Of a stretch of DNA of 62,439 bases, positions 2,759 to 56,478 are shown one piece after another (positions within the stretch are counted from its first letter, which is position 1; the number at the start of each line of letters is the position of its first letter). Position numbers and translations under genes: made by a program. Origin of the DNA: a virus (lineage: Duplodnaviria > Caudoviricetes); the IMG/VR virus record IMGVR_UViG_3300020045_001610, positions 1 through 62,439 of that record; one strand, given 5' to 3'. Below the pieces are notes generated by a model. The model made no database searches and was not told the DNA's origin. It saw nothing but the letters and a program-made list of their open reading frames with translations.

Positions 2759-3022
2759 ATGACCTCAGACGAACTCAAAAAATTACAGCAAGAAATTAAC
2801 CTTGACGCTACGAGCATGTCTTTATGCCTCGGTTTAACAATACACTGCTACAGGAAGTATTTGTACGGAGAAAATCAAATACCTGCAAAAGTTGAACGCG
2901 CTGTTTTAGAACTCCGTCAAATAAATGAAACTTTCTTCAACGAAATGGATTCTCGCGTTGACACTAGAATTAAAACGGAGCGAACTACCTTCAACCCTAA
3001 TTTAGTTCTTGACAATCCTTAA
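2759..3022 (+). CDS. HTH (XRE-like) protein
   Basis: MSLCLGLTIHCYRKYLYGENQIP resembles XRE helices 2-3. Confidence 0.55.
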   Translation: MTSDELKKLQQEINLDATSMSLCLGLTIHCYRKYLYGENQIPAKVERAVLELRQINETFFNEMDSRVDTRIKTERTTFNPNLVLDNP

Positions 3023-3037
3023 TTGTGGGGATACTGT
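3009..3037 (+). promoter_or_regulatory. sigma70-like promoter for lysis genes
   Basis: TTGACA-17-TACTGT. Confidence 0.45.
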
Positions 3038-3067
3038 ATCGCAAAATCTGACTATATGGGGTTTGCT

Positions 3068-3514
3068 ATGAAAGTAACCGAACACTTCACTTCTGAGGAA
3101 CTTCAACAGTCCAACACAGCAACCCGACTTGGTTTGCCCAACGTTTGCCCTCCTGAACTTACGGCCAATATGCTGAAGGTTGCAACACATCTTGAGCAAA
3201 TAAGAGGTCATTACGGCGTTCCTGTTCACATACATTCTTGTTATCGTGCTCCTGCTGTTAACGCCGCTGTTGGTGGTTCTGCTACTTCTGCTCATAGGTT
3301 TGCACTTGCCGCAGACTTTACAGTTGAAGGAAGGGGTATTAAGGAAGTTTGTGAATGGTGTTCGCAAAACGTAGTAGGCTATGACCAAATAATTTATGAA
3401 TTTGGGGAAAACGGGTGGATACATATTGGATTTTCAAATAACAGCCCTCGCAAGCAATGTTTAACTGCGACTAAAGTTGGCGGAAAAACAGTTTATGTTC
3501 AGGGTTTTAAGTAA
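3068..3514 (+). CDS. endolysin, peptidase M15 family
   Basis: SCYR..VNAAVGG..SAH...AADF and WIHI Zn motifs. Confidence 0.88.
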   Translation: MKVTEHFTSEELQQSNTATRLGLPNVCPPELTANMLKVATHLEQIRGHYGVPVHIHSCYRAPAVNAAVGGSATSAHRFALAADFTVEGRGIKEVCEWCSQNVVGYDQIIYEFGENGWIHIGFSNNSPRKQCLTATKVGGKTVYVQGFK

Positions 3515-3580
3515 TGGCCCACAAACGCTGCGATTATAACCCTGAAGTTTTCTGTTGCGATTGCCAACTGTGCACCTTAG

Positions 3581-3799
3581 ATGAAGACGTTTCCGAATCT
3601 TAACGAAACTATTGCTGAAATAGCAAACTGGAATTATTGGAGTCGCTACATGGCAGATGACTATCACGTTTGTACTGTGACTAACATTCGAGAACTTAAA
3701 GTTAAAGATGCTCCTAGTAAATGTGAAACTTGCGGTTTTTGTGAACGTAAAAGATTGAAACAACTTGAAATTAACAATGTTCAACAGGGGCCGTTGTAA
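3581..3799 (+). CDS. hypothetical protein
   Basis: ORF with CxxCxxC. Confidence 0.45.
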   Translation: MKTFPNLNETIAEIANWNYWSRYMADDYHVCTVTNIRELKVKDAPSKCETCGFCERKRLKQLEINNVQQGPL

Positions 3800-3967
3800 A
3801 TGGCAAATGTACCAAATGACAAAACAGGAAAGAAATGTCACTTCTTCAAGAAGTGTAAAACTAAATTTACCGAGTCTTCACCGACTTTAACTATAAACAA
3901 ACCAAACGGCGAAAGAGTTTTAGTATGTGTCGCGTGTCATAACGCTCATTACGCTGCTGGCGAATAA
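3800..3967 (+). CDS. small Cys/His protein (55 aa)
   Basis: manual ORF MANVPNDKTGKKCHFFKKC...CVACHNAH. Confidence 0.5.
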   Translation: MANVPNDKTGKKCHFFKKCKTKFTESSPTLTINKPNGERVLVCVACHNAHYAAGE

Positions 3968-4004
3968 TAAAGTTTTAAGCAACAAACAATAAAGGAGATT
4001 TAAA

Positions 4005-4544
4005 ATGAAAAGTTTATTTGTACTTGTGATTCTTGCTTTTGCAACAGTTTGTTTTGGTGCTGACGCTGTAGTTACTCCTGCCCCTTCCGTTCCGTTCGGG
4101 GATACTTTGTCAACTCTTCTGAGTCAAACAATTCTTCCGATTCTTGGCGCGTTGGTACTCGGTTTTGTTTCTTGGGCTGCTAAGTATATTGGTTCAAAGT
4201 TTAAAATTGAAGCTTTGACTACCAATAATGAGTATTTGAATAGACTTGCTGCTCAAGGTGTAGCTTTTGCTCAAGAGAAGGCTGCAAATTATGCAAAGCA
4301 GGCACAGCCTTTAAGTAGCAACGATAAGTTAAACTCCGCTATTGCCTACGTTATGCAGATGGCTCCTAAAGTATCTCCTGAACAGGCTCAGAGTCTTGTT
4401 ACTTCAGCTCTTGCTATGCTGCCTGGTGTCGGTGCTACTGGTGACGCGGCGGTTGGTGTTGTGCCTGCAATTACCGCCACTTTGCCCGTCGTCAATGTTA
4501 CAGGATCTGTATTGGCGAGTGCTCCATTACAAGTTAATCCATAA
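4005..4544 (+). CDS. holin-like membrane protein
   Basis: TM segment then LAAQGVAFAQE...KLNSAIAYV as in LL-H-type holins; lysis context. Confidence 0.6.
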   Translation: MKSLFVLVILAFATVCFGADAVVTPAPSVPFGDTLSTLLSQTILPILGALVLGFVSWAAKYIGSKFKIEALTTNNEYLNRLAAQGVAFAQEKAANYAKQAQPLSSNDKLNSAIAYVMQMAPKVSPEQAQSLVTSALAMLPGVGATGDAAVGVVPAITATLPVVNVTGSVLASAPLQVNP

Positions 4545-4545
4545 T

Positions 4546-4842
4546 ATGTGGGTATCAATTCTCTCAATACTCGCTTACCTCGTACCGTTCATATTAGATG
4601 CGTGGCAAGCGAGTAGTCCTGAACGAAAGAAAGAGGCTGAAGATGCTGAACGTCAAACACTCCGTAAGGCTATTGCAACTGACGATGCTACTGCTATTAA
4701 CAGGTACACAGATAGGCTGCTGTCTGATGTCAGTCTGCCTACAACGGGAACAGCCTCAGATAGTTCTGGACAGCAACACAGTGCAGATAGTACAGCCGAA
4801 GGAATCAGTGACCTTCTCGGAACAAAAGTTGTGCTTTGGTAA
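4546..4842 (+). CDS. i-spanin (Rz-like)
   Basis: N-terminal TM plus helical domain after holin. Confidence 0.55.
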   Translation: MWVSILSILAYLVPFILDAWQASSPERKKEAEDAERQTLRKAIATDDATAINRYTDRLLSDVSLPTTGTASDSSGQQHSADSTAEGISDLLGTKVVLW

Positions 4843-5211: not shown

Positions 5212-5616
5212 GTGCCAGCAGCTCCAAGACGCCCCTGTCGCTCGCCAAATTGCGGCGTACTTGGCACAACGCCTTATTGTGAAAAGCATACAATTAAGAA
5301 AGAAGCTGAAGTTCGAGTTGAAAGAATCAAATACGATAAAGAGCGCGGCACTTCGGCAAGTAGGGGTTACGGTAGTCGCTGGTCAACTTACAGTAAGCAA
5401 TTTAGGGTTAATAACCCGCTTTGCTGCATGTGCCTTGAGCGCGGCAAACTTACGAAGGCTGAGTGCGTCGATCACATCATTCCTGTCAGCGGCCCTGACG
5501 ATCCTTTGTTTTGGGAGCCTAGCAATCACCAGTCGCTTTGCCATAGCGACCACTCATTAAAAACGGCCAAGGAAGACGGTGCGTTTGGAAATACGAAAAA
5601 GGATAGGTTTATCTAA
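5212..5616 (+). CDS. packaging-associated HNH endonuclease (HK97 gp74-like)
   Basis: RGYGSRW...NPLCCMC...VDHIIP...NHQSLCH..H..KT; next to TerS. Confidence 0.9.
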   Translation: MPAAPRRPCRSPNCGVLGTTPYCEKHTIKKEAEVRVERIKYDKERGTSASRGYGSRWSTYSKQFRVNNPLCCMCLERGKLTKAECVDHIIPVSGPDDPLFWEPSNHQSLCHSDHSLKTAKEDGAFGNTKKDRFI

Positions 5617-6134
5617 TGGGAACAAATCGCGGCGGCGGCAGACGGCCAACGCCCACACATTTGGCAATCGTGGACAAGGCCCACCAACATCGCCACTATA
5701 ATCAACCCTCCCCCTCAAAGGATTGGCCTGAAGCGCCTGGGCGTCTTTCTGAAGCCGCCAAAGCTATCTTCGATAACTTGGTTGAAACGATAGCTGAACT
5801 ATACCCGCCGTCTGCCTCTCACGTTGAAATGCTTGCCTTGTACGCCGAACATAAAGAACTTGCTATATTCTTGGATGCCTTCTTGCGCGGCTACGATGAA
5901 GTAGAAGACCGTGAAACCGGCGAGTTGCAGCGCGTGTATCGTGGCCTTACTTATCTCAGTGGTAACAACATGATCCGCTCCAGGCCGGAAGTGCAAATGC
6001 TGAAGGATGAACGCAAGGCTTGTACTGACATATTGCGCGAGTTTGGACTTTCCCCCTCGGCGCAGCGTTCGGTGAAAGTTGAGAAAAAACAAGCGGTGAA
6101 AAATGCTTTTGCAGACCTTGACGAAACTGGTTGA
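5616..6134 (+). CDS. terS: terminase small subunit (P27 type)
   Basis: GRRPTPT start, APGRLS, EFGLSPSAQ. Confidence 0.85.
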   Translation: MGTNRGGGRRPTPTHLAIVDKAHQHRHYNQPSPSKDWPEAPGRLSEAAKAIFDNLVETIAELYPPSASHVEMLALYAEHKELAIFLDAFLRGYDEVEDRETGELQRVYRGLTYLSGNNMIRSRPEVQMLKDERKACTDILREFGLSPSAQRSVKVEKKQAVKNAFADLDETG

Positions 6135-6159
6135 CAAAGTATTAAAGTTGTGTTACAAA
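6131..6159 (+). promoter_or_regulatory. sigma70-like promoter for terL
   Basis: TTGACA-17-TACAAA. Confidence 0.55.
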
Positions 6160-6176
6160 GCTTCAACATAAATTAA

Positions 6177-6264
6177 CAGGTCGGATAGGACTTGTTCACG
6201 AATACGCGAGTATAACTTGCGTTGCTGCCAGCCCCTTCATCGTCTATCCACGTTGTTGGGGCTG
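6177..6264 (+). ncRNA. kissing-loop cis-regulatory RNA, copy 1
   Basis: hairpin loop GGATAG complementary to loop CTATCC; same architecture at 42439-42528. Confidence 0.6.
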
Positions 6265-6282
6265 TGCTATTTTAGGAGTGTT

Positions 6283-9183
6283 ATGAATTACGCCGAAATT
6301 GCATTGCAATATTGTCATGATGTTTTGAACGACACTTTGCCCAATAGGAAAGCTTGTAAATTAGAAAAGCTGTCATGCCAACGTCATCTGAATAACTTGG
6401 CTCAACAGGACGATCCTGACTACCCCTATTATTGCGACGATAGGGCCGGTATTAGGCACGTCAAATTTTTGTCGAAGTTGCGCCACTCAAAAGGAAAATG
6501 GCGAGGCCAGCTTTTTGTTCCAGAACCTCACCAGATTTTTTATCACTTCTGTCTTTTTGCATGGAAGAAAAAATCTACAGGATTTAGAAGATTTAATAAA
6601 GCGTATCTAAAAATACCTCGAAAGAATGGCAAGGCGATTTCGATCAATACCCCTCTTCCAACACCTTTAGGTTGGACAACTATGAGTGAAGTAAAAGTTG
6701 GGGATTTGTTGTTTGATGAAAGTGGTGAAATTTGTACTGTACTTAACGCAAGCCCTGTTGCTTATGATAAGGAATGTTTTAAAGTAACTTTTGATGATAA
6801 CAGCTCGATGGTTGTTGACAAAGAACATTTGTGGACTACTTTCGACGCCGGTTCACGCCAAGCTATATCAAACTCAGGTATTAAAAACTACCCTTCAGAT
6901 TGGCCTGCGTGGAAATCACCTCGCGGTAAACAAGCCAATACTATTGATACGGAGCAAATTTTAAAAACACTTGACGTTAAGCCTGGATATAAAAATCATT
7001 CCATACCTGTGTGTGGTTCGATAAATATGCCTGAAGCAAATCTTGAAGTAGACCCTTTCATTTTAGGGGTTTGGCTGGGAGATGGTTCTAGTTCCTCCGG
7101 TTCTGCTCGTATAGCGGCTGATCATCTTAACGGGGATCAATCTTTAATTCGAGAAGAATTTCATCGCAGGGGTTATTTGACGACTACAATATCAGACCCT
7201 GTTCAATTTACTGTAACGGGTTTATTGCGCCAACTTTTTGATATAGGTGTAGTAAATAACAAACACGTACCTCAGCAATATTTAAGGTCTTCTGTTGAGC
7301 AACGTATGGACTTGCTGCGCGGATTGATGCTGACTGATGGTACAATTACAGTTCAAGGACAAGTGAATTTTGAAAATACAAATGAAAATTTAATCGAATC
7401 TGTTTTAGAACTTGCTGTTTCGTTAGGCCAAAAAGCTCGCAAACAATGCCTCACAAGGTTGACGTTGACTGGCAAATCAGTGTGGAGGGTTGAATGGTCG
7501 CCTACGTTAGATGTATTCGGCTTAGGTAGAAAATCCGAACGATTGAAAATAGGTAGTGCTCAATCAATTCGTCACCATCATAGAATTATTAGGAGTGTTG
7601 TTCCGGTCGAATCTGTTCCGGTAAAATGCATTTCAATTGATTCAAAAAACAATCTATATTTGGCAGGAAGACATTTTGTACCGACCCATAATAGCTTTTC
7701 GTCAGCGGGGATAGGTCTTTATATGGCCTTCGCTGATGGAGAGAATGGTGCGGAATGCTACTGCGCTGCGACAACTGAAGCACAAGCGGGAATGGTGTTT
7801 GCCCCTGCATGGAGCATGGTTCACATGGACAACGACCTGAAGGAGGCATTTGGACTCACTCTTGCGGGTACAATTCGCAACCCCACTAGCATATATCGGG
7901 CAGACGATCTTAGCCGGATGGAACCTATTATAGGTACGCCAAAAGACGGAAGTTCACCGAGCTGCGGAATTTGTGACGAGCTGCATGAGCACCCCTCAAG
8001 GGCTTTATATGACAGCCTTGACACCGGAATGGGTGCTCGCGAAGCCCCACTTTTGGTGGCCATCACGACTGCTGGAATTAACATTTCTTCATTCTGTTAC
8101 GAGCTTGAACTTGAAGCAATTCAAATTTTGGAAGGGACGTTAGAAAAGGAAAATGTTTTTGTAATGATCTTTGGTATTGACGTTGATGACGATTGGCGTG
8201 ACTTTGAAGTATGGCGCAAAGCCAACCCGAATTTAGGCGTAAGTATAAATGAAGAATATCTACTTGGCAAATATCAAGATGCGATGACAAACCTTTCACA
8301 GAGGGCCATTTTGCTCACGAAGCACTGCAACGTTTGGGCCAACGCAGGCGCAATGTGGTGCGATATGAATAAGTGGAATGAAAATGCAAGACCTGATATT
8401 AAAATTGAACAATTCTTAGGTAAAAAAGCAACTATTGCAATTGACCTTGCGAGCAAGATCGACATCGTAGCTGTTGAAATAATGTTTGAACTTGAAGACA
8501 TGCAATACAAAATATGCCCTCGTTGCGGCGAGCAAGTTCTATGGGAAAACGAAACATACATTTGCTCTAAGAACAATGCCGAAGGTGGTTGTAGCTGGCA
8601 GCGTAAATCTTCTAAGCGAACAATGACATTTAGTAAATTTTATTTGCCGGAATCCACCGTGCTGAAGAAGGAAAATAATCATTATCAATTGTGGGCAAAC
8701 GAAGGCTTGCTTACGGTAACTGAGGGTGAGCGAACTGACTTTCAAAAGGTAGAAGAAGATTTACAAGAACTTTGTAAATTGTTTATTGTGAGTGAAATTG
8801 TGTTTGACCCGAAGGAAGCGGCGTATCTCATACAGAACATTCAAAAGTGGTTTGGGGGTGAATGTATCGAATGTAATCAGTCGCCAGCGATGCTTTCTGA
8901 ACCTATGAAAGAGTGCGAAGCGATGATTGTCGATGGATGTTTCCTACATGATGGAAATAAAGTATTGACTTGGATGTTTGGAAACGTTATAAGACGACAA
9001 GGTAAAAGCGGCGGTAATGTTAAGTATGCTTATCCGTCGAAACAAAGTGAAGGATTGAAAATAGACGGAGCCGTGGCCTGTATCACAGGATTGTCACGTA
9101 TAATGACTTACGATACCGATTCGGGAGATTCATACAATGCGCGAGCCGCGAAGGGACAGTTGGAGATATTACGCGTAATTTAA
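6283..9183 (+). CDS. terL: terminase large subunit (intein-containing)
   Basis: Walker A PRKNGK|S split by intein, ICDELHE, ITTAG, IAIDLA, KIDG; AGGAG RBS. Confidence 0.93.
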   Translation: MNYAEIALQYCHDVLNDTLPNRKACKLEKLSCQRHLNNLAQQDDPDYPYYCDDRAGIRHVKFLSKLRHSKGKWRGQLFVPEPHQIFYHFCLFAWKKKSTGFRRFNKAYLKIPRKNGKAISINTPLPTPLGWTTMSEVKVGDLLFDESGEICTVLNASPVAYDKECFKVTFDDNSSMVVDKEHLWTTFDAGSRQAISNSGIKNYPSDWPAWKSPRGKQANTIDTEQILKTLDVKPGYKNHSIPVCGSINMPEANLEVDPFILGVWLGDGSSSSGSARIAADHLNGDQSLIREEFHRRGYLTTTISDPVQFTVTGLLRQLFDIGVVNNKHVPQQYLRSSVEQRMDLLRGLMLTDGTITVQGQVNFENTNENLIESVLELAVSLGQKARKQCLTRLTLTGKSVWRVEWSPTLDVFGLGRKSERLKIGSAQSIRHHHRIIRSVVPVESVPVKCISIDSKNNLYLAGRHFVPTHNSFSSAGIGLYMAFADGENGAECYCAATTEAQAGMVFAPAWSMVHMDNDLKEAFGLTLAGTIRNPTSIYRADDLSRMEPIIGTPKDGSSPSCGICDELHEHPSRALYDSLDTGMGAREAPLLVAITTAGINISSFCYELELEAIQILEGTLEKENVFVMIFGIDVDDDWRDFEVWRKANPNLGVSINEEYLLGKYQDAMTNLSQRAILLTKHCNVWANAGAMWCDMNKWNENARPDIKIEQFLGKKATIAIDLASKIDIVAVEIMFELEDMQYKICPRCGEQVLWENETYICSKNNAEGGCSWQRKSSKRTMTFSKFYLPESTVLKKENNHYQLWANEGLLTVTEGERTDFQKVEEDLQELCKLFIVSEIVFDPKEAAYLIQNIQKWFGGECIECNQSPAMLSEPMKECEAMIVDGCFLHDGNKVLTWMFGNVIRRQGKSGGNVKYAYPSKQSEGLKIDGAVACITGLSRIMTYDTDSGDSYNARAAKGQLEILRVI
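6634..7692 (+). mobile_element. class 3 intein with LAGLIDADG endonuclease (353 aa)
   Basis: starts AISINTP, EHLW, VKCISID, PTHN|S; LGVWLGDG and LRGLMLTDG. Confidence 0.88.
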
Positions 9184-10935: not shown

Positions 10936-11136
10936 ATGTTCAAAAAACTTCTTCGCATAATGCCCGACATGTCTGTCTGCTTATTCCTTCTTGGAATAAT
11001 TGCCGTCTTTTTCGGCGTCTATCAGCTTTCAATCCCCAGTTCATACATTGTACTCGGTATCATGCTTATTGCTACGGCGCTTGTTAAAGCTCGCGCTGAG
11101 GCTATTGCTAAAGCTAAGCCTATTGGTGAAAACTAA
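10936..11136 (+). CDS. small two-TM protein preceding portal
   Basis: two hydrophobic segments; common position in HK97-like phages. Confidence 0.7.
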   Translation: MFKKLLRIMPDMSVCLFLLGIIAVFFGVYQLSIPSSYIVLGIMLIATALVKARAEAIAKAKPIGEN

Positions 11137-12485
11137 TGGGATTTCTCAGTTCGCTCTTTGAAACTCGTGCTTCAGTTGGGCCTTCCGTAAATATTAGCAA
11201 CGGCGGCGATTCGGCGTTAGCAGGTATGTTCGGCGGCACCGCAGGAACGGCTTCAGGCCAGAATGTTAACTCCGACACAGCATTAAAGATTTCTACCGTA
11301 TGGGCTTGCATGAATCGTCGTGGTAAAGCCTTCGCAATGTTACCGCTGCATGTTATGAAGGAATTGCCTGGAAACGGTCATGAGATAGCAAAGTCGCATA
11401 GACTATACAAGCAGATGCACTTGAAGCCTAACGCTTGGCAGACATCGTACGAGTGGCGCTTAACCGGCATGACACATCTTCAATTACGCGGCAACTTCTA
11501 CAATCTGAAGATAAGTACACCAGGACGCGGCCTGAATCAGCTTGTGCCGCTTGATCCTGATAGAATGTGGCCGTTTGTTATCACGCCTGCCGGTATCACC
11601 TATTACCTGAACGACAGCAGCCCAACGCCGCCTGCTGGCTCTAAATTGTTCTATCAGTATTTTGCGGTGAATGCTCAAAGTGAAATCTACACCGCTGACG
11701 AGATATTACATTTCAGGAATACGTCAACCAACGGTATTGTGGGCAAGACGTTAATACGTTTAATGGCTGAATCTGTCGGCCTGTCAATGGCAATGGAAGA
11801 ACAGGGAGCGCGATTGTTTACGAACGGCGCTCAAATTGGCAAGGTGTTTACTCACCCTGCTAAACTGGACGATCCGGCGTTTGACAGACTGAAGAAACAA
11901 CTTGACCAATATTCAGGCGCGGCTAATTCCCACAGAACAATTATACTTGAAAATGGAATGGATATTTCAAGTTTAAGTATGACGATGCAAGACAGCCAAT
12001 TTATTGAATCGAGAAAATTTCAAGTTGAGGACATCTGTTCATATTTAGATATTCCAATGATGCTAATTCATCGTTCGGGCGACAAGAATCAAACGTTTGC
12101 CAGTGCTGAAGTAATCATGCAAATGTTTATAACTTTGAACATGCAGCCTGATTTTGAAAACTTTGAACAGCGTCTTAAAGTAGATTTGCTTTACGACTCA
12201 GAACAAGATTACTATTTCAACTTTGACTTTGATGAACTTATGCGCGGCGATACAGCAGCAAGAGCAAGTTACTATCAGGCGCGTTTAAATACAGGCTCTC
12301 TGACACCGAACGATATTAAACGTAAAGAGGGTGAAAGCCCTTATGCAATGGAAGAGTGTGATGCTGTTTATATGGGTAGCGGTATACAGGCGGCAAAGAA
12401 CGTATTGAATCCGCCTGAGCCTATAGCTAAGCCTGAAGTTAAAGTTGAACCAAAAGTGGAGGACAAAAATAATGGCAAAGAATGA
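11136..12485 (+). CDS. portal protein, HK97 family
   Basis: VWAC...LPL, PNAWQT, LRGNFY, ILENGM, QFIESRKF, LTPNDIK. Confidence 0.95.
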   Translation: MGFLSSLFETRASVGPSVNISNGGDSALAGMFGGTAGTASGQNVNSDTALKISTVWACMNRRGKAFAMLPLHVMKELPGNGHEIAKSHRLYKQMHLKPNAWQTSYEWRLTGMTHLQLRGNFYNLKISTPGRGLNQLVPLDPDRMWPFVITPAGITYYLNDSSPTPPAGSKLFYQYFAVNAQSEIYTADEILHFRNTSTNGIVGKTLIRLMAESVGLSMAMEEQGARLFTNGAQIGKVFTHPAKLDDPAFDRLKKQLDQYSGAANSHRTIILENGMDISSLSMTMQDSQFIESRKFQVEDICSYLDIPMMLIHRSGDKNQTFASAEVIMQMFITLNMQPDFENFEQRLKVDLLYDSEQDYYFNFDFDELMRGDTAARASYYQARLNTGSLTPNDIKRKEGESPYAMEECDAVYMGSGIQAAKNVLNPPEPIAKPEVKVEPKVEDKNNGKE

Positions 12486-15872: not shown

Positions 15873-15943
15873 TTCGGAATTGAACTTAACTATTAACTGA
15901 AGGAGAGGGCTGGCAACGGCCCTCTTGTAAAAGGAGCTTTATC

Positions 15944-16540: not shown

Positions 16541-16581
16541 TGATGCGCCCTTCGGGGCGCTGATTTTGGAAAGAGGTTAAA

Positions 16582-40111: not shown

Positions 40112-41809
40112 TCACCACTCCACAGATTTAATTTCAGGATATTGCAAATCAGTTTGCACGTTTATACGCTTTGGGCAACGCAATTGACTAACATAAATAA
40201 GTGCGTCGTCTACTGTAATTGGAACTGGTAAAGAACTTCGTTGCTGCCACCAGCTAATTGCCTTGTTTTTAATCATACCTTTAGCTTCAAACGGTACGTA
40301 TTCAGAATGTCTTTGCAGTCCACAATAGTAAGAAACTTTCAAACAAGGAACACCTATTGCATTCTTTTTAGAGTTGTGCTTGTGATAGATAACTCTTGTC
40401 ACGTCGAACGTTTCAATTACAGGTTCACTGAACTCTGTACTTAAAAACTCAGCAGTTCCTGCGTCGGCAACAAGTTTAGTTTTGAAAACGAACTCAGCCC
40501 CACAACCTTCATCTGATGGATAAGGTTTACCACCGCAGTAGCGAGCTGAAGCATGATTATACATTCCACAACCTGAACCTTCTTTAACAGACTTTTCTTC
40601 GCAGATTCGTATAGGCGCATCCCCAACTTTATCACCTTTCTTTGTGGGTATATTCGGAGCGTCTATTGGCCCCAACCTCTTACGGTTGCCAGCAAAATCA
40701 AGCACCAATGCGTTGCGCTTAACGTAGTCAAAACCTTTGACATATTGCTGAGGGTTGTTGAAGTCGTAAGGTCTAGTTAACCTCCCAAGCATCTGAACCC
40801 ACTTTGAAGCTGACATTGTAGAGCGTAGCATTAAACAGAAGTCAATTGGTGGAAAGTCGTAACCAGTTGTGAACTTTTCATTCCCACATACAACCTTGAT
40901 TTCACCTGACTCAAATGCTGTAAAGCGTTTATCGCATTCAGAAGCAGTCAGTTTTGAATGTATTGCAACAGCACTTACACCGAAGCTTTGAAGTATCTCA
41001 GCAGCCATTTCGCTTGTTTTTATTCCAGAGCAAAACGTCAGCCCACAATTGCGAGCGTAGATATAAGGTAGCGATTCCTTTACTGCTTCGTATATAACTT
41101 TTTCAGTAGCATCTTCAAGCTGCCTTACAGCAAAGTCGCCGTTCATCATTTTTATAGAAGTTGTATCTACTTCAATGTTTGTTCGTAGCGGTATCAATGG
41201 CGCAAGATACCCTAAATCTATAAATCTTCTGAAACAAGCGGGTGTTGAAAGGTCAATACAAATATCGTCAAACGTTTCACCGTCTGTTATTAAACCTTGC
41301 CCACTTCTATACGGTGTTGCCGTCATTCCAATTACTTTTAAGTTTGGATTTATCTCTTTAAGTCTATTTATAATTTTTTGGTACATCGTATTTTCATCTT
41401 GAGACACTAGATGTACTTCATCAATGAAAATTATATCTCTATGACCAAATGCGTCAATATTATTAACTGCCGAAGCTACACCAGCTACTACAATTGGGTG
41501 CGCTGTATCTTTGCTATTTAACCCTGCTGAATAAACTCCAAGTGCCGCGTCAGCCCATAATAACCTAATTGCCTTAATGTCCTGGGTGAGAATCTTTTCA
41601 ACGTGCGATAAAATCAACCAACGTTGATTGCACCATTGAGTAAATGTTTGATAAACAAAGCCTGCTAGTATAAGCGATTTGCCACAACCTGTTGGAATCA
41701 CTGCAATAATGTTTCCATCGTTGCCCTGCCGGTAATAATCAGAAAAGGAATTAATAGTCTCTATCTGGTAATCACGCAATTGAATTTCTTTGTGGACTTG
41801 TAAACTCAT
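40112..41809 (-). CDS. SF2 helicase (RadD/YejH-like)
   Basis: LRDYQ, PTGCGKS, DEVH, TATP, QMLGR. Confidence 0.92.
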   Translation of the reverse strand: MSLQVHKEIQLRDYQIETINSFSDYYRQGNDGNIIAVIPTGCGKSLILAGFVYQTFTQWCNQRWLILSHVEKILTQDIKAIRLLWADAALGVYSAGLNSKDTAHPIVVAGVASAVNNIDAFGHRDIIFIDEVHLVSQDENTMYQKIINRLKEINPNLKVIGMTATPYRSGQGLITDGETFDDICIDLSTPACFRRFIDLGYLAPLIPLRTNIEVDTTSIKMMNGDFAVRQLEDATEKVIYEAVKESLPYIYARNCGLTFCSGIKTSEMAAEILQSFGVSAVAIHSKLTASECDKRFTAFESGEIKVVCGNEKFTTGYDFPPIDFCLMLRSTMSASKWVQMLGRLTRPYDFNNPQQYVKGFDYVKRNALVLDFAGNRKRLGPIDAPNIPTKKGDKVGDAPIRICEEKSVKEGSGCGMYNHASARYCGGKPYPSDEGCGAEFVFKTKLVADAGTAEFLSTEFSEPVIETFDVTRVIYHKHNSKKNAIGVPCLKVSYYCGLQRHSEYVPFEAKGMIKNKAISWWQQRSSLPVPITVDDALIYVSQLRCPKRINVQTDLQYPEIKSVEW

Positions 41810-42150
41810 AAACAATAAGTCTCCACTTTAGCAGCTTTACCACGCCGTACCATATCGGCAGTACCTGCTCCGCCTGGAAACGCTAGAATCATGTCAGGGC
41901 AAGCAAATTCAAGCATCCATTGGTTACGAATCGAACCTGCTTTGTTGTCGTAGCAATCCCAATTTGTATCGCATTGAAAACACGCAATTCCATGCAGTTT
42001 AGTCCATTTCTTACTAAGTAAGTCAGCACCTTTAGCGCCACCTTGAATAATACAAATTGTACCGAAGTCAAGCAAAGCTCTGTCAAGAACTGAGAATAGA
42101 AACGATTCGTTGTTGTATGTTCTGCCGCCGCAGACTAGGATTCGTTTCAT
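41806..42150 (-). CDS. YspA/SLOG-family protein (DUF2493-like)
   Basis: ILVCGGR, GGAKGAD, AGSIRN..M, AFPGGAGT. Confidence 0.85.
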   Translation of the reverse strand: MKRILVCGGRTYNNESFLFSVLDRALLDFGTICIIQGGAKGADLLSKKWTKLHGIACFQCDTNWDCYDNKAGSIRNQWMLEFACPDMILAFPGGAGTADMVRRGKAAKVETYCL

Positions 42151-42297
42151 TCAAAGCAATCCTGAAGCGAATTGCAAACCCACATGTTATCGTGGAAGTC
42201 GCTTACTATGAATTGCTCGTTTGACGTTTCAAAAGCCCATCGTTTGCAAGCTATTTTTAGTTGCGATTCTGAATAGTTCATTTGTTTCTCCTCTAGT

Positions 42298-42417
42298 CTA
42301 CTCGCAACCCTGCAATTCCCATTCGGCGCGGGTGATTACTCCAATATAAGGTATCTTTTTGGATTGCCCAATGTATACTGCAATCACACCGTCCTGGTAT
42401 TTAAGCCAAGTTGTCAC
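42298..42417 (-). CDS. 39-aa protein downstream of RNA motif copy 2
   Basis: GGGAGG RBS, GTG start. Confidence 0.45.
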   Translation of the reverse strand: MTTWLKYQDGVIAVYIGQSKKIPYIGVITRAEWELQGCE

Positions 42418-42438
42418 AGAAAACCTCCCTGAAATATT

Positions 42439-42528: not shown

Positions 42529-42576
42529 ATGTTTTATGTGCGACGGATAGTAGCTGAAGTTTGAGTGTTTGTCAAG

Positions 42577-42744
42577 TTAATTTTCGTGAGTTGCACTAAT
42601 TTCAAAAGTTTTAATTTGTAAAACAGTTCGTTCGCTTTCATTGTAACTTAAATAAAGTTCAAACCATTTATTTAAAGCAAACGATTCAAGTTCGTTTTCT
42701 GCTGTTACTAACAACCTACCTTTACTTGATATTTCAGCTTTCAT
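42577..42744 (-). CDS. hypothetical protein
   Basis: ATGA overlap with nuclease. Confidence 0.5.
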   Translation of the reverse strand: MKAEISSKGRLLVTAENELESFALNKWFELYLSYNESERTVLQIKTFEISATHEN

Positions 42745-43634
42745 ATTATACTCTCCCAAACTTCACAAGCGAGTTTAATTGAATCCTTCGGTATAATTGC
42801 ATCCCATTGTTCACAGTACCATTCAGCCGAATCTACAGGATGCGATTTGCGACAACTACGACAATTAACTAACGCAGGTTCATTTGAATGACATACTAAT
42901 TTTGCATCACAATACTGGCATTCGTAATAGCTTTGGCTCATACTAATTCCAGCAGGAGCGACTTCGCTGAATATTATCATCTCTGCCTTTTTCTCAAGCG
43001 AAGCCCCTAAGAAATGATCCAGCTTCACAAGTTCAATATGAAGGTTGTCATCATTTTTGCAAACTGAAATATAAAGAGCGTGTTCAAGACCTAGCTTATA
43101 TCCATACATCGACATCTGAGCAAAATGAACAGGCTTGTAACTTTTAACACCTTCTTTAACAAGCTTATCAAAGTTACTTACTTTTGCGCCTTGTTTACCA
43201 AGCCCTTGCGTTTTATACTCAATTAAGATAGAACCTACGTCATCTCTATAACCAATACCGTCAACAGAACCTCCAAAATGACCTTTGCAAGCAGATATTC
43301 TAATTTGCCTCTTCCCTTTGTCAAGTTCTGTATCATCTTTGTGGGCATCGTCAAACTCTCTGACAGTAAATCCAATACCTTCAACTAAGGCTTTCAGCTT
43401 TGGTTCTTCAAAATGCCCACGATGGAGCAGTCTTTGCATTCTACCATCAAAATGAACATAGAACGTCCATCTAAATTTCAACCACAAAAGTTTACTACAA
43501 GATTGACCTATCTCCGACGCTCCGAGATGTGATCTAAATCCGTCGTCAAATTTAATTTCGCAATATTGGTCAATTTCATCCTTTATCTGCCGCGACAGTT
43601 GCGCTAGTGCGCCTGGGGTGGTGAGGTCTAACAT
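42741..43634 (-). CDS. PD-(D/E)xK (Cas4/RecB-like) exonuclease
   Basis: RSHLGAS...C, GSVDG, IEYKT, QMSMY, C-terminal CxxC..C. Confidence 0.85.
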   Translation of the reverse strand: MLDLTTPGALAQLSRQIKDEIDQYCEIKFDDGFRSHLGASEIGQSCSKLLWLKFRWTFYVHFDGRMQRLLHRGHFEEPKLKALVEGIGFTVREFDDAHKDDTELDKGKRQIRISACKGHFGGSVDGIGYRDDVGSILIEYKTQGLGKQGAKVSNFDKLVKEGVKSYKPVHFAQMSMYGYKLGLEHALYISVCKNDDNLHIELVKLDHFLGASLEKKAEMIIFSEVAPAGISMSQSYYECQYCDAKLVCHSNEPALVNCRSCRKSHPVDSAEWYCEQWDAIIPKDSIKLACEVWESII

Positions 43635-53283: not shown

Positions 53284-55620
53284 ATGGAACGCTATGTACC
53301 TGAAGAACTCCGCATTAAAATGCCGTGGATATTATGGCAGTCACGTCAAGATTCACCTGATACAAAAGCTACTAAATTACCAATTGACCCTTACACAGGC
53401 CGGTTAGCTTCAGTTACAAATTCTGCAACTTGGGGCGCTTTTGAGCTTTGCTACAGCATAAAGCATTGCGCTACAGGTATGGGTATAGTCTTGCTCAAAG
53501 CGTTGGGTTACACCTGCATTGACCTGGACGAGACAGACGATCCCGTTGAACAAGCACGTCATCAAGCTATCATTAAAGCGTTCAACTCATACACCGAATA
53601 CTCACAATCTGGAAAAGGGTATCATATATGGGTTCGCGGCGTAGTTCTAATGGGTAGACGACGCGGTAAAGTTGAGATGTATTCAGACGGAAGATACATG
53701 GCGACAACTGGCAACGTATTTTTAGACGTACCAATACGTGAATGCCAAGAACTTCTAATGAGTTTATGGGATGAACTGGAAGTTAAAGAAAAGATAACAT
53801 CGGATATAGATAACCCTGAAGTTCATACCGACACTGAGGTTTTGACGTTTGCTTCCAGCGCAGCGAACGGACAGAAATTTATTGATCTTTGGGAAGGTCG
53901 GTGGCAACTGTACTATGACGATGAAGTTACAAAAGTAAGTTGCAACGAAGCAGATTTCGCACTTATAAATATTTTGGCCCACTACACTCAAAACAGAAAT
54001 CAAATTACACGTTTGTTTTTAAGTTCTGCGTTAGGAAAGCGTGAAAAAGCAAAACGCACTCAATACGTAGGCTACATGTTAAGTCGCGCCTTTGACAGAA
54101 TTCCGCCACCTTTAGACTTATCGGCGCTTCACGCCAATCTCGAATTACAACTTCAGGCTTCGAGAATTAAGCCTGAGTCGGTTATTGCGCCACAACCCAT
54201 AGCACCGGAGCCTGTTAAGCACGTTGAGCATCATAGCAAGCCTCAGAAACATTCAAAAAACGATATATCTGGATTTACATATACAGTACCCCCAGGGCTG
54301 TGCGGCGAGCTCGCTATGTTTATTCACAATGCTGCACCCCGTCCGGTTCCTGAGATTGCGATTGCCGGTGCAATTGGATTAATGAGTGGTATTTGTGGAC
54401 GTAGTTATAATGTAAGTGGAACTGGGCTTAATAATTATATATTTTTGTTAGCCAAAACCGGACGGGGCAAAGAGGCGATGGGTTCTGGAATTGGTAAATT
54501 AATAAACGCCGTAGTTAAGACTGTTCCAGCAGCTACAGCTTTTTCAGGGCCGAGTAAAATTGCATCTTCCGAAGCACTTTTAAAATATATTTCTAAAACG
54601 TCAAAATGTTTCTTATCTATAATGGGTGAGTTTGCTGATAGTTTGAAACGTATGTCTAACGACAGTAGAAACCCTGTTCAACAGGGAGTTCGACAAGTCA
54701 TGCTCGATCTTTATAATAAGTCTGGAAATGGAAATATTTTAGGTAATTTAATTTATTCAGATAAAGATAAAAACACCGAAGTTATAACCGCACCGGCATT
54801 TTCTATTTTAGGAGAAGCTACTCCTGAAAAGTTTTATGAATTATTATCCAAAGATATGATAACTGAAGGTTTACTTCCCAGGTTTTGTATTATTGAATAC
54901 AGTGGCCACAGAGTACAGTTAAACAAAGAACATCACAAAGCAATCCCTTCGCAACAGTTAACAGACCGTTTTGCAGCTTTGTGCACCTATTCCCTACAGT
55001 TAAACAATGGTGACAATTCTTTGGATGTTGTTTTAGATTCAGACGCTCAACGGTTGTTTGACGAATTTGATATGTACTGTGACAAAAAGATAAATAGTGG
55101 AAGTGAGATAAATCAAGAACTTTGGAACAGAGCACATATAAAAGCGTTAAAAATGGCGGCGTTACTGGCAGTTGGTTGTAACTACATTCAGCCGGTAGTT
55201 AACGCCGAATGTGCAAATTGGGCTTTAAATCTAGTAATTAACGATGTTAAAAATATACTCAGTCGTTTTGAATCAGGTGAAGTAGGTTTACCACAAGTAC
55301 AGAATGAACAATTTATTGACATCTACAAGGCATTTAAAAAGTATATGAAAGAGGATTGGCAAGCGGTTAACAAATACGTAGGCGCTTCGCTAATTACTCA
55401 CGAAAATCATTTGGTTCCGCATAGCTTTATAACAGCACATTGTAGGAATAAAGCTTCTTTTAAATCTGATCGACTAGGGCCAGTTAACGCAGTTAAGACA
55501 ATACTTCAGTCAATGATTGAGTCGGGTGATATTCAAGAAGTAAGTCCTTTGGATAAACAAAAATATAACCTTCCAAAGAACGGCAAAATTTATGCTCTTT
55601 TGAATTTGAGTTTAATATAA
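53284..55620 (+). CDS. primase-polymerase fused to DUF3987-like ATPase/helicase
   Basis: IDLD, EYSQSGKGYH, EMY; AKTGRGKE, GLLPRF. Confidence 0.85.
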   Translation: MERYVPEELRIKMPWILWQSRQDSPDTKATKLPIDPYTGRLASVTNSATWGAFELCYSIKHCATGMGIVLLKALGYTCIDLDETDDPVEQARHQAIIKAFNSYTEYSQSGKGYHIWVRGVVLMGRRRGKVEMYSDGRYMATTGNVFLDVPIRECQELLMSLWDELEVKEKITSDIDNPEVHTDTEVLTFASSAANGQKFIDLWEGRWQLYYDDEVTKVSCNEADFALINILAHYTQNRNQITRLFLSSALGKREKAKRTQYVGYMLSRAFDRIPPPLDLSALHANLELQLQASRIKPESVIAPQPIAPEPVKHVEHHSKPQKHSKNDISGFTYTVPPGLCGELAMFIHNAAPRPVPEIAIAGAIGLMSGICGRSYNVSGTGLNNYIFLLAKTGRGKEAMGSGIGKLINAVVKTVPAATAFSGPSKIASSEALLKYISKTSKCFLSIMGEFADSLKRMSNDSRNPVQQGVRQVMLDLYNKSGNGNILGNLIYSDKDKNTEVITAPAFSILGEATPEKFYELLSKDMITEGLLPRFCIIEYSGHRVQLNKEHHKAIPSQQLTDRFAALCTYSLQLNNGDNSLDVVLDSDAQRLFDEFDMYCDKKINSGSEINQELWNRAHIKALKMAALLAVGCNYIQPVVNAECANWALNLVINDVKNILSRFESGEVGLPQVQNEQFIDIYKAFKKYMKEDWQAVNKYVGASLITHENHLVPHSFITAHCRNKASFKSDRLGPVNAVKTILQSMIESGDIQEVSPLDKQKYNLPKNGKIYALLNLSLI

Positions 55621-56478
55621 ATCAGTGTCGTCAATTGAAATATGTTCAATTGGAAATTCAGCAAGCATTAACTCTTCTTTTTGTTTTCTTATGGTTTCTT
55701 GTCTCTTTATAACTGAAGCAGCTTTCTTTTCCTTACCTTCAGGCGTGTTCCAAAATTCTTTTATTGCAGCGGCTCTTTTAGCTACCGTTTCAGGGGATTG
55801 TGGTTTTGTTTTCTTGCCTTTTTGCCAAGCACTCTTTTTAGCTAAGGTTTCAGGTGAATCTTTTCTACCAATGTTATTTTTAGCCATTTCATAGCAGCGT
55901 TCAATTGCGCCTGGGGTTGCAGGTCTTCCAGTTGCGGCTATTACCATCTTATCTCTTGACTCTCTAGTATGCTGTTTTCCAGTAAAGCCAATTTTACGTT
56001 TATTTTTAACTTCTTCGCTTGCATTCAAAGCGTTAATTCTTCGTTTTTCCCTTGTTATTTCTGTTACAGGAGGTCTTTTCTTTGCCGATTCACTCATTCT
56101 ATTGCAAATTTCAGCATTTCTTTTCTTACCTGTATTTTTAAGTCTTATTTTTTCACGAGTTTCTTCGGTAACTGTTCTTGTACTTAAACCTAATCCACCT
56201 AGGGAATGATTGGTTAAATTTGCGCCTAAAGACCTCATATAAGCAATCCAAAATATTTCAGCTTCAGGCCATTCACTAAAATGATTTAAAGTTTCCAAAA
56301 TAATAATTTCAGGTTTATTCGGTTTTAAAGACCTAATCCAATTTGCACAGTATGTTCTACGGTTAGGATTGTCGTGGCAATGAGCATAAAGCCTAAGTCC
56401 AATATCTACCGATTTTCCAACATATCTAACTTCCGATGTAAATGGATCAAGTAACGCATAAATATGGGTAGGTTTCAT
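55612..56478 (-). CDS. GIY-YIG homing endonuclease with NUMOD3-like repeats
   Basis: HIYAL...YVGKS...R, E..WI, LTN; repeated ETREKI. Confidence 0.85.
   Translation of the reverse strand: MKPTHIYALLDPFTSEVRYVGKSVDIGLRLYAHCHDNPNRRTYCANWIRSLKPNKPEIIILETLNHFSEWPEAEIFWIAYMRSLGANLTNHSLGGLGLSTRTVTEETREKIRLKNTGKKRNAEICNRMSESAKKRPPVTEITREKRRINALNASEEVKNKRKIGFTGKQHTRESRDKMVIAATGRPATPGAIERCYEMAKNNIGRKDSPETLAKKSAWQKGKKTKPQSPETVAKRAAAIKEFWNTPEGKEKKAASVIKRQETIRKQKEELMLAEFPIEHISIDDTDLY

Follow-up and report, generated by a model that had tools for sequence, protein, structure and literature searches.

A structured leader RNA with a covarying kissing-loop contact upstream of terL in a small clade of uncultured phages

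What is the element that fills the gap between the terminase genes terS and terL in an uncultured phage (IMG/VR record IMGVR_UViG_3300020045_001610), and why does a second copy of it stand on the opposite strand, in the replication and recombination block? The whole stretch analysed, a virus record of 62,439 bp with a CheckV completeness of 81%, is referred to here as the window. An initial annotation, made from the sequence of the window, had described both copies as a leader RNA of three hairpins (H1, H2 and H3) in which the loop of H1 (L1) matches the loop of H3 (L3), and had taken them for a regulatory RNA family linking the expression of packaging and replication genes. The element proves to be a genuine and well-supported structured RNA motif that had not been catalogued before, and its kissing-loop contact of 6 bp covaries. 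So far it is known only from a small clade of uncultured phages, where it is tied to the slot before terL. An action in cis as a regulator is plausible, as judged only from where it lies, between a conserved promoter-like site and a Shine-Dalgarno sequence that follows closely.

Hairpins and the covarying loop-loop helix

Every stem and loop of the three hairpins was present in both copies (Table 1) and was recovered by minimum-energy folds, which gave z-scores of -4.5 for copy 1 and -4.9 for copy 2; 0 of 200 shuffles folded as well. H3 of copy 1 is a long, G+C-rich hairpin with an energy of about -21.6 kcal/mol. In each copy L1 is the exact reverse complement of L3 when read from the sequence, despite the different loops of the two copies, as had been reported. 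The chance that two random 6-mers pair at all six positions is ~2e-4, or ~1e-3 if one G-U pair is allowed. Each copy starts ~30 nt past a TTGACA-17-TAnnnN site and ends 8-9 nt before a Shine-Dalgarno sequence, in agreement with the promoter and the ribosome-binding site noted on its two sides. The H1 pattern occurs in the window at just these two places. The two copies are paralogues, with 75% identity over the 209 aligned columns that hold promoter, 5' motif and H1. The loops of copy 1 do not match those of copy 2 (3 Watson-Crick pairs and one G-U of 6), so that the copies cannot interact through their loops.

Relatives were sought in five ways: with an H1-based DNA pattern, with TerS and a TerS profile, with a 5'-motif/H3 pattern, with a profile of the TerL N-terminus (401 relatives, of which the best 80 were kept) and with two covariance models, R1 built from 2 sequences and R2 from 6. 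Loose hairpin-descriptor scans were noisy (91 and 210 matches) and were used only to spot members with a long H3. A covariance model of the two copies, such as R1, had been proposed as a check by the initial annotation. Altogether six further distinct members were obtained, all in uncultured phage contigs, which brings the family to eight sequences. When R2 was run on the window with filters off, the two copies scored E = 5.4e-20 and 4.5e-11 (copy 2); the next best match was at 1.3 and nothing else fell below 1.

In all eight members the loops of H1 and H3 of the same element pair at 6 of 6 positions, and seven loop-pair types are represented, with a single G-U pair, in L092 (script over all members). 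Retention of this complementarity in homologues was one of the points on which the initial annotation had staked its claim. Non-matching loop combinations gave at most 4 pairs, except for the near-identical L098 and L139, which gave 5-6. Complementarity was not continued into the loop-flanking bases in any member, bar one G-T in copy 1; as it ends at the loop edges, the pairing is loop to loop rather than part of an alternative long helix. The loop pairs of L098 and L137 are mirror images of each other, the partners being exchanged between the hairpins. In L074 (1906-1932) the 3' strand of H2 holds a second CTATCC, identical to loop 3, so that loop 1 has two possible partners there; the repeat may be a coincidence, may serve as a decoy or may be a remnant of the process by which new loop pairs form.

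Pair counts were made on A11, the model-fitted alignment of the eight sequences. The kissing helix had been left out of the covariance model, and the alignment is thus not biased towards it. In A11 this helix is 100% paired in the five in-register rows, and both-side changes affect 4 of its 6 pairs; the loop pairing of the three remaining, out-of-register rows was checked by script. H1 and H3 were in the model, so that their pair counts lean towards the structure; with this leaning, both-side changes were seen at 5 of 6 H1 pairs and 12 of 15 H3 pairs. Over the whole alignment 96.4% of 193 cells were paired, compared to 68.8% in shuffles, 21 of 27 pairs changed on both sides, and 0 of 500 shuffles reached any of five measures. 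When the alignment was slid by 1-3 columns, 33-46% of cells were paired. The MAFFT alignments A3 and A5 put the loops out of register and were excluded from counting. Minimum-energy folds of the members (z-scores -3.3 to -5.5) contained H2 and H3 in 8 of 8 and H1 in 7 of 8. H2, the middle hairpin, varies in length and sequence and could not be aligned, and hence was not counted for covariation. The conserved structured-RNA family proposed from two copies is borne out by eight distinct members with compensatory changes in H1, in H3 and in the loop-loop helix.

Thirteen G-U cells of A11 would be A-C mismatches on the opposite strand, and reverse-strand matches of the covariance models were weak. 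These results place the structure on the strand of the flanking genes, i.e. in RNA. Outside the stems, the only recurrent features were an ACATAAA-like motif at the 5' end (exact in 5 of 8 members; ACATGAA, AAATAAT and AAATACA in the others), a U after H1 and the U-rich tail. The core of invariant unpaired nucleotides that marks a riboswitch was not found in A11, where sequence and length differ between members in the loops, in H2 and in both linkers. The small number of recurrent unpaired bases argues against a small-molecule aptamer.

In line with the novelty that had been suggested, no Rfam 15 family matched the element. At gathering thresholds there were 0 matches in the whole window; at E up to 10, the 351 bases around each copy gave only RT-11, on the opposite strand and at 13.2 bits (E = 1.8) against a gathering threshold of 143.5. 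No description of this element was found among the papers listed for bacteriophage kissing, antitermination and leader RNAs, and a literature search for a phage terminase-linked RNA motif with covariation gave no paper.

Distribution and genomic setting

The element was present at 5 of the best 80 of the 401 TerL-relative loci, and all five are among the 8 closest TerL relatives. As carriers are confined to the closest relatives, the family belongs to a small clade. In L096, the closest relative without the element, terS and terL overlap and leave no gap; in the window, promoter and leader are duplicated together. Promoter and leader thus behave as an inserted module, and the gap that it makes is a landing site for endonuclease genes.

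Upstream of all eight members lies a TTGAC[AT] hexamer (TTAACA in L092), followed after 17-18 nt by a hexamer starting with TA, with a TG one base before it in 6 of 8. Between the first hexamer and the 5' motif there are 29-32 nt in all eight, and because of this constancy the 5' motif is probably the first transcribed sequence. On the other side, H3 ends 8-11 nt before the Shine-Dalgarno sequence in 7 of 8 members and 19 nt before it in L137. In copy 1 the terS stop codon TGA falls within the TTGACA hexamer; the site was skipped by a simple promoter scan because its second hexamer ends in A.

The seven members other than copy 2 lie ahead of terL or of a homing-endonuclease gene that has become inserted before it. 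TerL follows directly in copy 1, L074 and L097. A free-standing homing-endonuclease-like gene of 310-319 aa lies between element and TerL in L092, L098, L137 and L139, i.e. in 4 of the 7 terL-linked members, and uses the ribosome-binding site of the leader. NUMOD3 motifs are present in 3 of these 4 genes, and the N-termini look GIY-YIG-like by eye, or HNH-like in L137. The leader-terL junction thus seems to be a homing hot spot. The window itself has a homologue of these endonucleases on the minus strand at 55612-56478 (30-35% identity by tblastn; PHROG 'homing endonuclease'), which adjoins the primase gene and lies behind a TTGACT...TGnTA promoter-like site (56550-56522) with a short plain leader.

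The name of terL leader given by the initial annotation holds for copy 1. Copy 2, which it had linked to replication gene expression, does not stand directly before a replication gene; it precedes, in order, a 39-aa open reading frame (ORF), a 44-aa ORF, the gene of a SLOG/YAcAr-domain protein and the helicase gene. Neither of the two small ORFs matched a PHROG family. The 39-aa ORF was also considered as the decayed remnant of a GIY-YIG homing endonuclease, and this was rejected: tblastn of the four endonuclease proteins matched only 55645-56475, and nothing at 42147-42417. A 37-codon frame, ATG...TAA (42643-42533, minus strand), crosses the promoter-like site of copy 2, its stop being the TAA within ACATAAA; it is without a Shine-Dalgarno sequence and is probably not a gene.

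A second copy was found in one of the eight phage records examined, namely the window; the other seven (G001-G007) have one copy each. Six of these seven have CheckV completeness values of 11-81%, so that the absence of a second copy there is weak evidence. The seventh, G006, is 93% complete and has a single true copy. With the second copy seen in this phage only, the proposed link between packaging and replication is not supported as a trait of the family, and the association that is constant is the one with the slot before terL.

Several other candidates were rejected as members. L086 (R1, E = 0.007) lacks the basal stem of H3, is apparently coding sequence and was treated as a chance match. 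L220 in G006 (R2, E = 0.11) lies before tail genes and combines a promoter-like site with a single long hairpin and a U-rich tail, but has neither H1 nor a kissing contact. L124 and 12 other matches of the 5'-motif/H3 pattern scan had no complementarity between H1 and L3, and L221 is an unrelated terminator region. The L124 site (7219-7400), in an unrelated IMG/VR phage contig, consists of TTGACC-N17-TATAAA, ACATAAAC, two hairpins and a clean terminator, with no loop complementarity; it resembles a gene for a small RNA and has nothing but the 5' motif in common with the leader family. A stable hairpin followed by a U-rich stretch, GGAG and a start codon, again without H1 or kissing, was also seen at 15904-15943 and 16545-16581 (plus strand) of the window and at 1541-1630 of L220, and it may be common in this phage group for a hairpin to border on a ribosome-binding site. 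The TerS profile gave one match in genome contigs, a 4.3-kb contig of a Bacteroidales metagenome bin in which the element is absent, and no reliable host could be taken from it.

The gene content of the window is that of a tailed phage, and no end repeats were found in it. ARAGORN listed no tRNA and no tmRNA in the window. Structural genes continue after the portal gene to ~35.9 kb. The TerL start at 6283 is consistent with the N-termini of homologues. TerL of the window is 966 aa long, compared to ~639 aa in relatives such as L074; a Pfam LAGLIDADG_3 match at residues 341-386 splits its ATPase from its nuclease domain, and this insert is probably an intein. The DNA of positions 5600-7000 had no match among 50,697 phage records. 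The portal protein is at most 34% identical to those of known phages, with the top matches in Streptococcus and Ruminococcus phages. TRTG-like extended -10 motifs and strong GGAG sites would, we presume, suit a Firmicute host. Queries with the Cas4-like exonuclease and the helicase, which sought related replication modules, found no relatives among viral contigs.

Table 1. Coordinates of the two leader copies, of the neighbouring genes and of the further members. L1/L3 gives the loop pair.
Feature	Position	Strand	Sequence or remark
Copy 1, leader RNA	6166-6279	+	between terS and terL
Copy 1, promoter-like site	6131-6159	+	TTGACA 6131-6136, 17 nt, TACAAA 6154-6159; TG one base upstream of second hexamer
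Copy 1, single-stranded 5' motif	6166-6176	+	ACATAAATTAA; unpaired in minimum-energy fold
Copy 1, H1	6177-6194	+	CAGGTC 6177-6182, L1 GGATAG 6183-6188, GACTTG 6189-6194; 6 bp, one G-T pair
Copy 1, H2	6204-6222	+	ACGCGAGT 6204-6211, loop ATA, ACTTGCGT 6215-6222; 8-bp stem, 3-nt loop
Copy 1, H3 5' side	6229-6243	+	CAGCCCC 6229-6235, TTCAT, CGT 6241-6243
Copy 1, H3 loop L3	6244-6249	+	CTATCC
Copy 1, H3 3' side	6250-6264	+	ACG 6250-6252, TTGTT, GGGGCTG 6258-6264
Copy 1, U-rich tail and initiation region	6265-6285	+	TGCTATTTT; Shine-Dalgarno AGGAG 6274-6278; ATG 6283; tail score -3.67
Copy 2, leader RNA	42539-42425	-	ACATAAA 42539-42533, H1, H2, H3, U-rich tail; L1/L3 GGGCAT / ATGCCC
Copy 2, promoter-like site	42547-42575	-	TTGACA 42575-42570, 17 nt, TACTAT 42552-42547; scan score 10/12
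Copy 2, H1	42528-42511	-	CAAGTC 42528-42523, loop GGGCAT 42522-42517, GACTTG 42516-42511
Copy 2, H2	42502-42487	-	TCGCAA, loop GTAA, TTGCGA
Copy 2, H3	42482-42439	-	AAAGCCTC 42482-42475, AGATCGA, loop ATGCCC(C) 42464-42458, TCGGTCT, GAGGTTTT 42446-42439
Copy 2, Shine-Dalgarno and 39-aa ORF	42298-42428	-	GGAGG 42428-42424; start GTG 42417
Lysis-type genes		+	plus-strand genes
HNH endonuclease	5212-5616	+
TerS	5616-6134	+
TerL	6283-9183	+	ATG start 6283
Portal gene	11136-12485	+
Replication/recombination block		-	Cas4-like exonuclease, SLOG/YAcAr-domain protein, helicase, SSB-like, Sak4-like, ligase, thymidylate synthase
Helicase	40112-41815	-
Cas4-like exonuclease	42741-43634	-
Member L074	1867-1984		L1/L3 GGATAG / CTATCC, as in copy 1
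Member L092 (L091 identical)	3540-3658		L1/L3 GTGCAG / CTGCGC, one G-U; homing-endonuclease-like gene 3663-4613
Member L097	3050-3166		L1/L3 GGCAAG / CTTGCC
Member L098	2826-2939		L1/L3 CTGCCA / TGGCAG; homing-endonuclease-like gene 2947-3885
Member L137	1373-1488		L1/L3 TGGCAG / CTGCCA; homing-endonuclease-like gene 1501-2457
Member L139	1450-1562		L1/L3 CCGCCA / TGGCGG; homing-endonuclease-like gene 1567-2496

Possible roles of the leader

The comparisons above show the structure, the strand, the conservation and the position of the leader. Among the roles weighed, that of a cis-acting transcription attenuator or antiterminator, which would control read-through via the loop-loop contact, is tentatively favoured. 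A leader RNA of ~100-115 nt would be made from its own sigma-70-type promoter inside the long gene array, starting at or near the 5' motif. Its three hairpins would fold and the H1 loop would join the H3 loop in a 6-bp Watson-Crick kissing helix. H3 would be an intrinsic terminator between the promoter and the first gene, and the contact would determine whether RNA polymerase continues beyond H3, and perhaps beyond later terminators, to reach terL and the structural genes; copy 2 would exert the same control on the helicase block in this phage. Linkers of 8-18 nt may not span a stack of 27-33 bp without straining the base of H3.

The features of H3 point in this direction. No other part of the leader approaches its stability (-21 to -30 kcal/mol in seven rows, L074 excluded); it is mostly preceded by A-rich sequence and is followed by a U-rich tail. 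The tail scores of these rows were -2.7 to -4.9, the threshold of terminator finders being about -2.5. A stable H3 with a U-rich tail thus looks like an intrinsic terminator. In L137 a U-tract, UUUCUUUAUUUU, follows H3 directly although the Shine-Dalgarno sequence is further away, which suggests that the element includes the U-rich tail. Attenuators are laid out in this way, with a terminator-like hairpin separating promoter and gene, and the strictly conserved contact to the H3 loop would most simply be a modulator of that hairpin.

Several observations weigh against attenuation. The U-tract does not adjoin the stem in copy 1 or in L074 (GGGGCUG-UGCUAUUUU); the U run starts 5 nt after it, and the AU-rich stretch after H3 could simply be a Shine-Dalgarno spacer. 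H3 of copy 1 was not among the sites given by a simple terminator scan, whose only entry at copy 2 was another, shorter hairpin. The loops meet at the tip of a stem of 14-19 bp, far from the base that matters for termination, so that a steric effect is not obvious. As transcripts from upstream genes carry the whole element too, it gives no means of distinguishing one promoter from another. A scan of 36 ORFs of the window recognised no regulator of the antiterminator or RNA-binding kind, and five further sites in the window that resemble this promoter are not followed by the leader. The ACATAAA motif was also considered as a real -10 hexamer or as a sigma-dependent pause element and was set aside, there being by eye no consistent TAnnnT across the members. 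A stronger form of attenuation would be an RNA-only transcription switch of a new class, in which a promoter-proximal hairpin would grip the loop of a terminator hairpin via a re-programmable 6-bp kissing helix and so decide on the entry of polymerase into the terminase/structural operon; the loop would be an address that prevents cross-reaction of paralogous or co-infecting copies. This we regard as doubtful, and less likely still is a variant in which the same complementary loops would join molecules into dimers or rings, in the manner of prohead RNA (pRNA), in a phage with TerS and TerL.

A translational role is equally compatible with the short distance from H3 to the Shine-Dalgarno sequence that seven of the eight members show, and an effect after transcription, with elongation unaffected, is a possibility held with less confidence. 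The compact kissing fold would protect the 5' end of the terL or helicase-block mRNA against RNases, present or mask the ribosome-binding site, or be a processing site at which the mRNAs of upstream and of downstream genes are parted. The element always lies directly before an ORF with a strong GGAG-type site, and both copies are internal to long same-strand gene arrays; processing or stabilising elements, e.g. the RNase III sites of T7, are common in such arrays of phages. H1, the kissing helix and H3, if stacked, would make a near-continuous duplex of ~27 bp, which is RNase III-sized. However, a protective stem must sit within a few nt of the 5' end, and the ~11 unpaired nt before H1 would make a poor 5'-end protector. 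The Shine-Dalgarno sequence and the start codon are not sequestered in the predicted folds, and the 19-nt distance in L137 fits poorly. Pairing of the 5' motif with the initiation region was no better than in shuffled leaders or with 23 other initiation regions of the window, only copy 2 standing out (1 of 8). A closing helix of ACATAAA with the start-codon region, attractive by eye in 6 of 8 members, was likewise discarded since its duplex energies were no better than controls.

That the locus encodes a discrete small RNA of ~105-115 nt, which would run from the promoter to the H3 terminator and act in trans, appears rather unlikely. Such an RNA could self-associate into dimers or rings and act in packaging or on another target, downstream genes being reached by read-through. 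It would explain a promoter-like start together with a terminator-like end, and the location of seven of the eight members beside terL. A stack of H1, kissing helix and H3 would measure 27-33 bp (~75-90 A by estimate) against 8-18 nt in the linkers J1/2 + J2/3, and intramolecular closure would thus be tight in some members, e.g. L092 with 8 nt. The orthogonal loops of the two copies are what would keep two self-assembling RNAs from mixing. The loops vary freely and yet stay complementary, as do the intermolecular kissing loops of phi29-family pRNA in the part of the source used here (PMC4201828). Against such a small RNA, no pRNA-like 5'/3' closing helix or three-way junction was found, and one of the two copies, copy 2, is situated within the replication block. 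There is always a ribosome-binding site directly next to the element, and a small-RNA gene standing on its own would have no need of one. Rfam includes a pRNA model, and no match was obtained with it. Moreover, these phages have TerS, a TerL with a nuclease domain and an HNH endonuclease, a packaging machinery that to our knowledge is not known to need RNA. A function at the level of DNA and without any role of RNA, as protein-binding inverted repeats, a packaging (cos) signal or a single-strand initiation signal, is very improbable. A cos site is expected near an HNH-TerS-TerL set, such as the one in which this element lies between terS and terL, homing-endonuclease genes are inserted right beside it, and single-strand origins of three hairpins exist, e.g. 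of the phage G4 type. The G-U cells, on the other hand, are tolerated on one strand only, and seven loop pairs that stay complementary, one of them with a G-U, are expected of nucleic-acid pairing and not of protein half-sites. The copy in the replication block argues against a cos site, and the promoter-like site upstream and the ribosome-binding site downstream fit a transcript.

Comparison with known phage RNAs and significance

Only three RNA-based antiterminators, put, EAR and conAn2, were known in 2021, according to the part of the account drawn on here (PMC8191782). The put RNAs of HK022 are described, in the portion of the source used, as promoter-proximal nascent RNAs, two per genome in different operons, with a shared fold and diverged sequence, which suppress termination without a phage protein; put RNA is ~70 nt long, has two stem-loops in a V shape with a short triplex in stem I, and binds the beta' zinc-binding domain of polymerase (PMC9378689). 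The window is alike in having two copies, which belong to gene arrays of opposite orientation and closely follow a promoter-like site; a site of this kind, recognised by sequence, precedes all eight members. In contrast to put, for which that portion describes neither a loop-loop helix nor a terminator-like hairpin of its own, the element has three hairpins, a 6-bp kissing helix and a terminator-like H3 in ~100 nt from the 5' motif to the end of H3. Two copies are present in only one of the eight records of this family.

In the phi29 family the complementary loops belong to one RNA and the kissing sequences differ between phages, again from the part of the source consulted (PMC4201828). The leader resembles pRNA as a phage RNA linked to packaging genes, with its own loops Watson-Crick complementary and varying among relatives; complementary, covarying loops within one RNA are a property of all eight members. 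The pRNA loops, as there described, pair between molecules over 2-5 bp and are carried on a three-way junction with an ATPase-binding 5'/3' helix, whereas the helix found here is of 6 bp. The folds gave no three-way junction and no consistent closing helix, and the complementarity of the ends was not above controls. The phages known to have pRNA are without TerS and without a nuclease-bearing TerL, whereas the phage studied here has TerS and TerL, and one of its copies is unrelated to packaging.

In lambda, the arrangement of promoter, leader and terminator at PR'-6S RNA-tR' requires antitermination, by the Q protein loaded at the promoter. The locus is similar to those of lambdoid phages in its constitutive-looking promoter and in a strong hairpin with a U-rich tail within 100-200 nt, before a long late operon. 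It differs in that no Q-like protein was recognised among the 36 scanned ORFs, that the lambda leader has no conserved kissing fold, and that the module lies between terS and terL and not at the start of the lysis/packaging genes. The antisense RNAs c4 of P1/P7 and CI of P4 have hairpin loops complementary to the same primary transcript; loop and target co-change, giving specificity types. The targets coincide in part with the ribosome-binding site of the gene under control, and the RNAs act in trans after processing. The leader shares with them a loop and a partner that lie on one transcript and change together between relatives. However, L1 finds its complement in the apical loop of H3, which precedes the Shine-Dalgarno sequence by more than 25 nt, and not in a ribosome-binding site; no Rfam family matched the element, and the C4 model is included in Rfam.

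The element is thus a new and narrowly distributed RNA motif. The structured RNAs of phages are poorly covered by catalogues, and the comparative support for a long-range loop-loop helix is unusually clean here, with seven 6-bp solutions in eight sequences. It also offers a clear genetic handle, as the loops can be swapped and restored. If the fold merely stabilises the leader, the element would be an ordinary one of narrow distribution; if the RNA self-associates, pRNA-like behaviour would be extended beyond phi29-type phages. If the contact controls read-through into terL, it would provide a compact, programmable and orthogonal RNA part and a new timing of packaging-gene expression.

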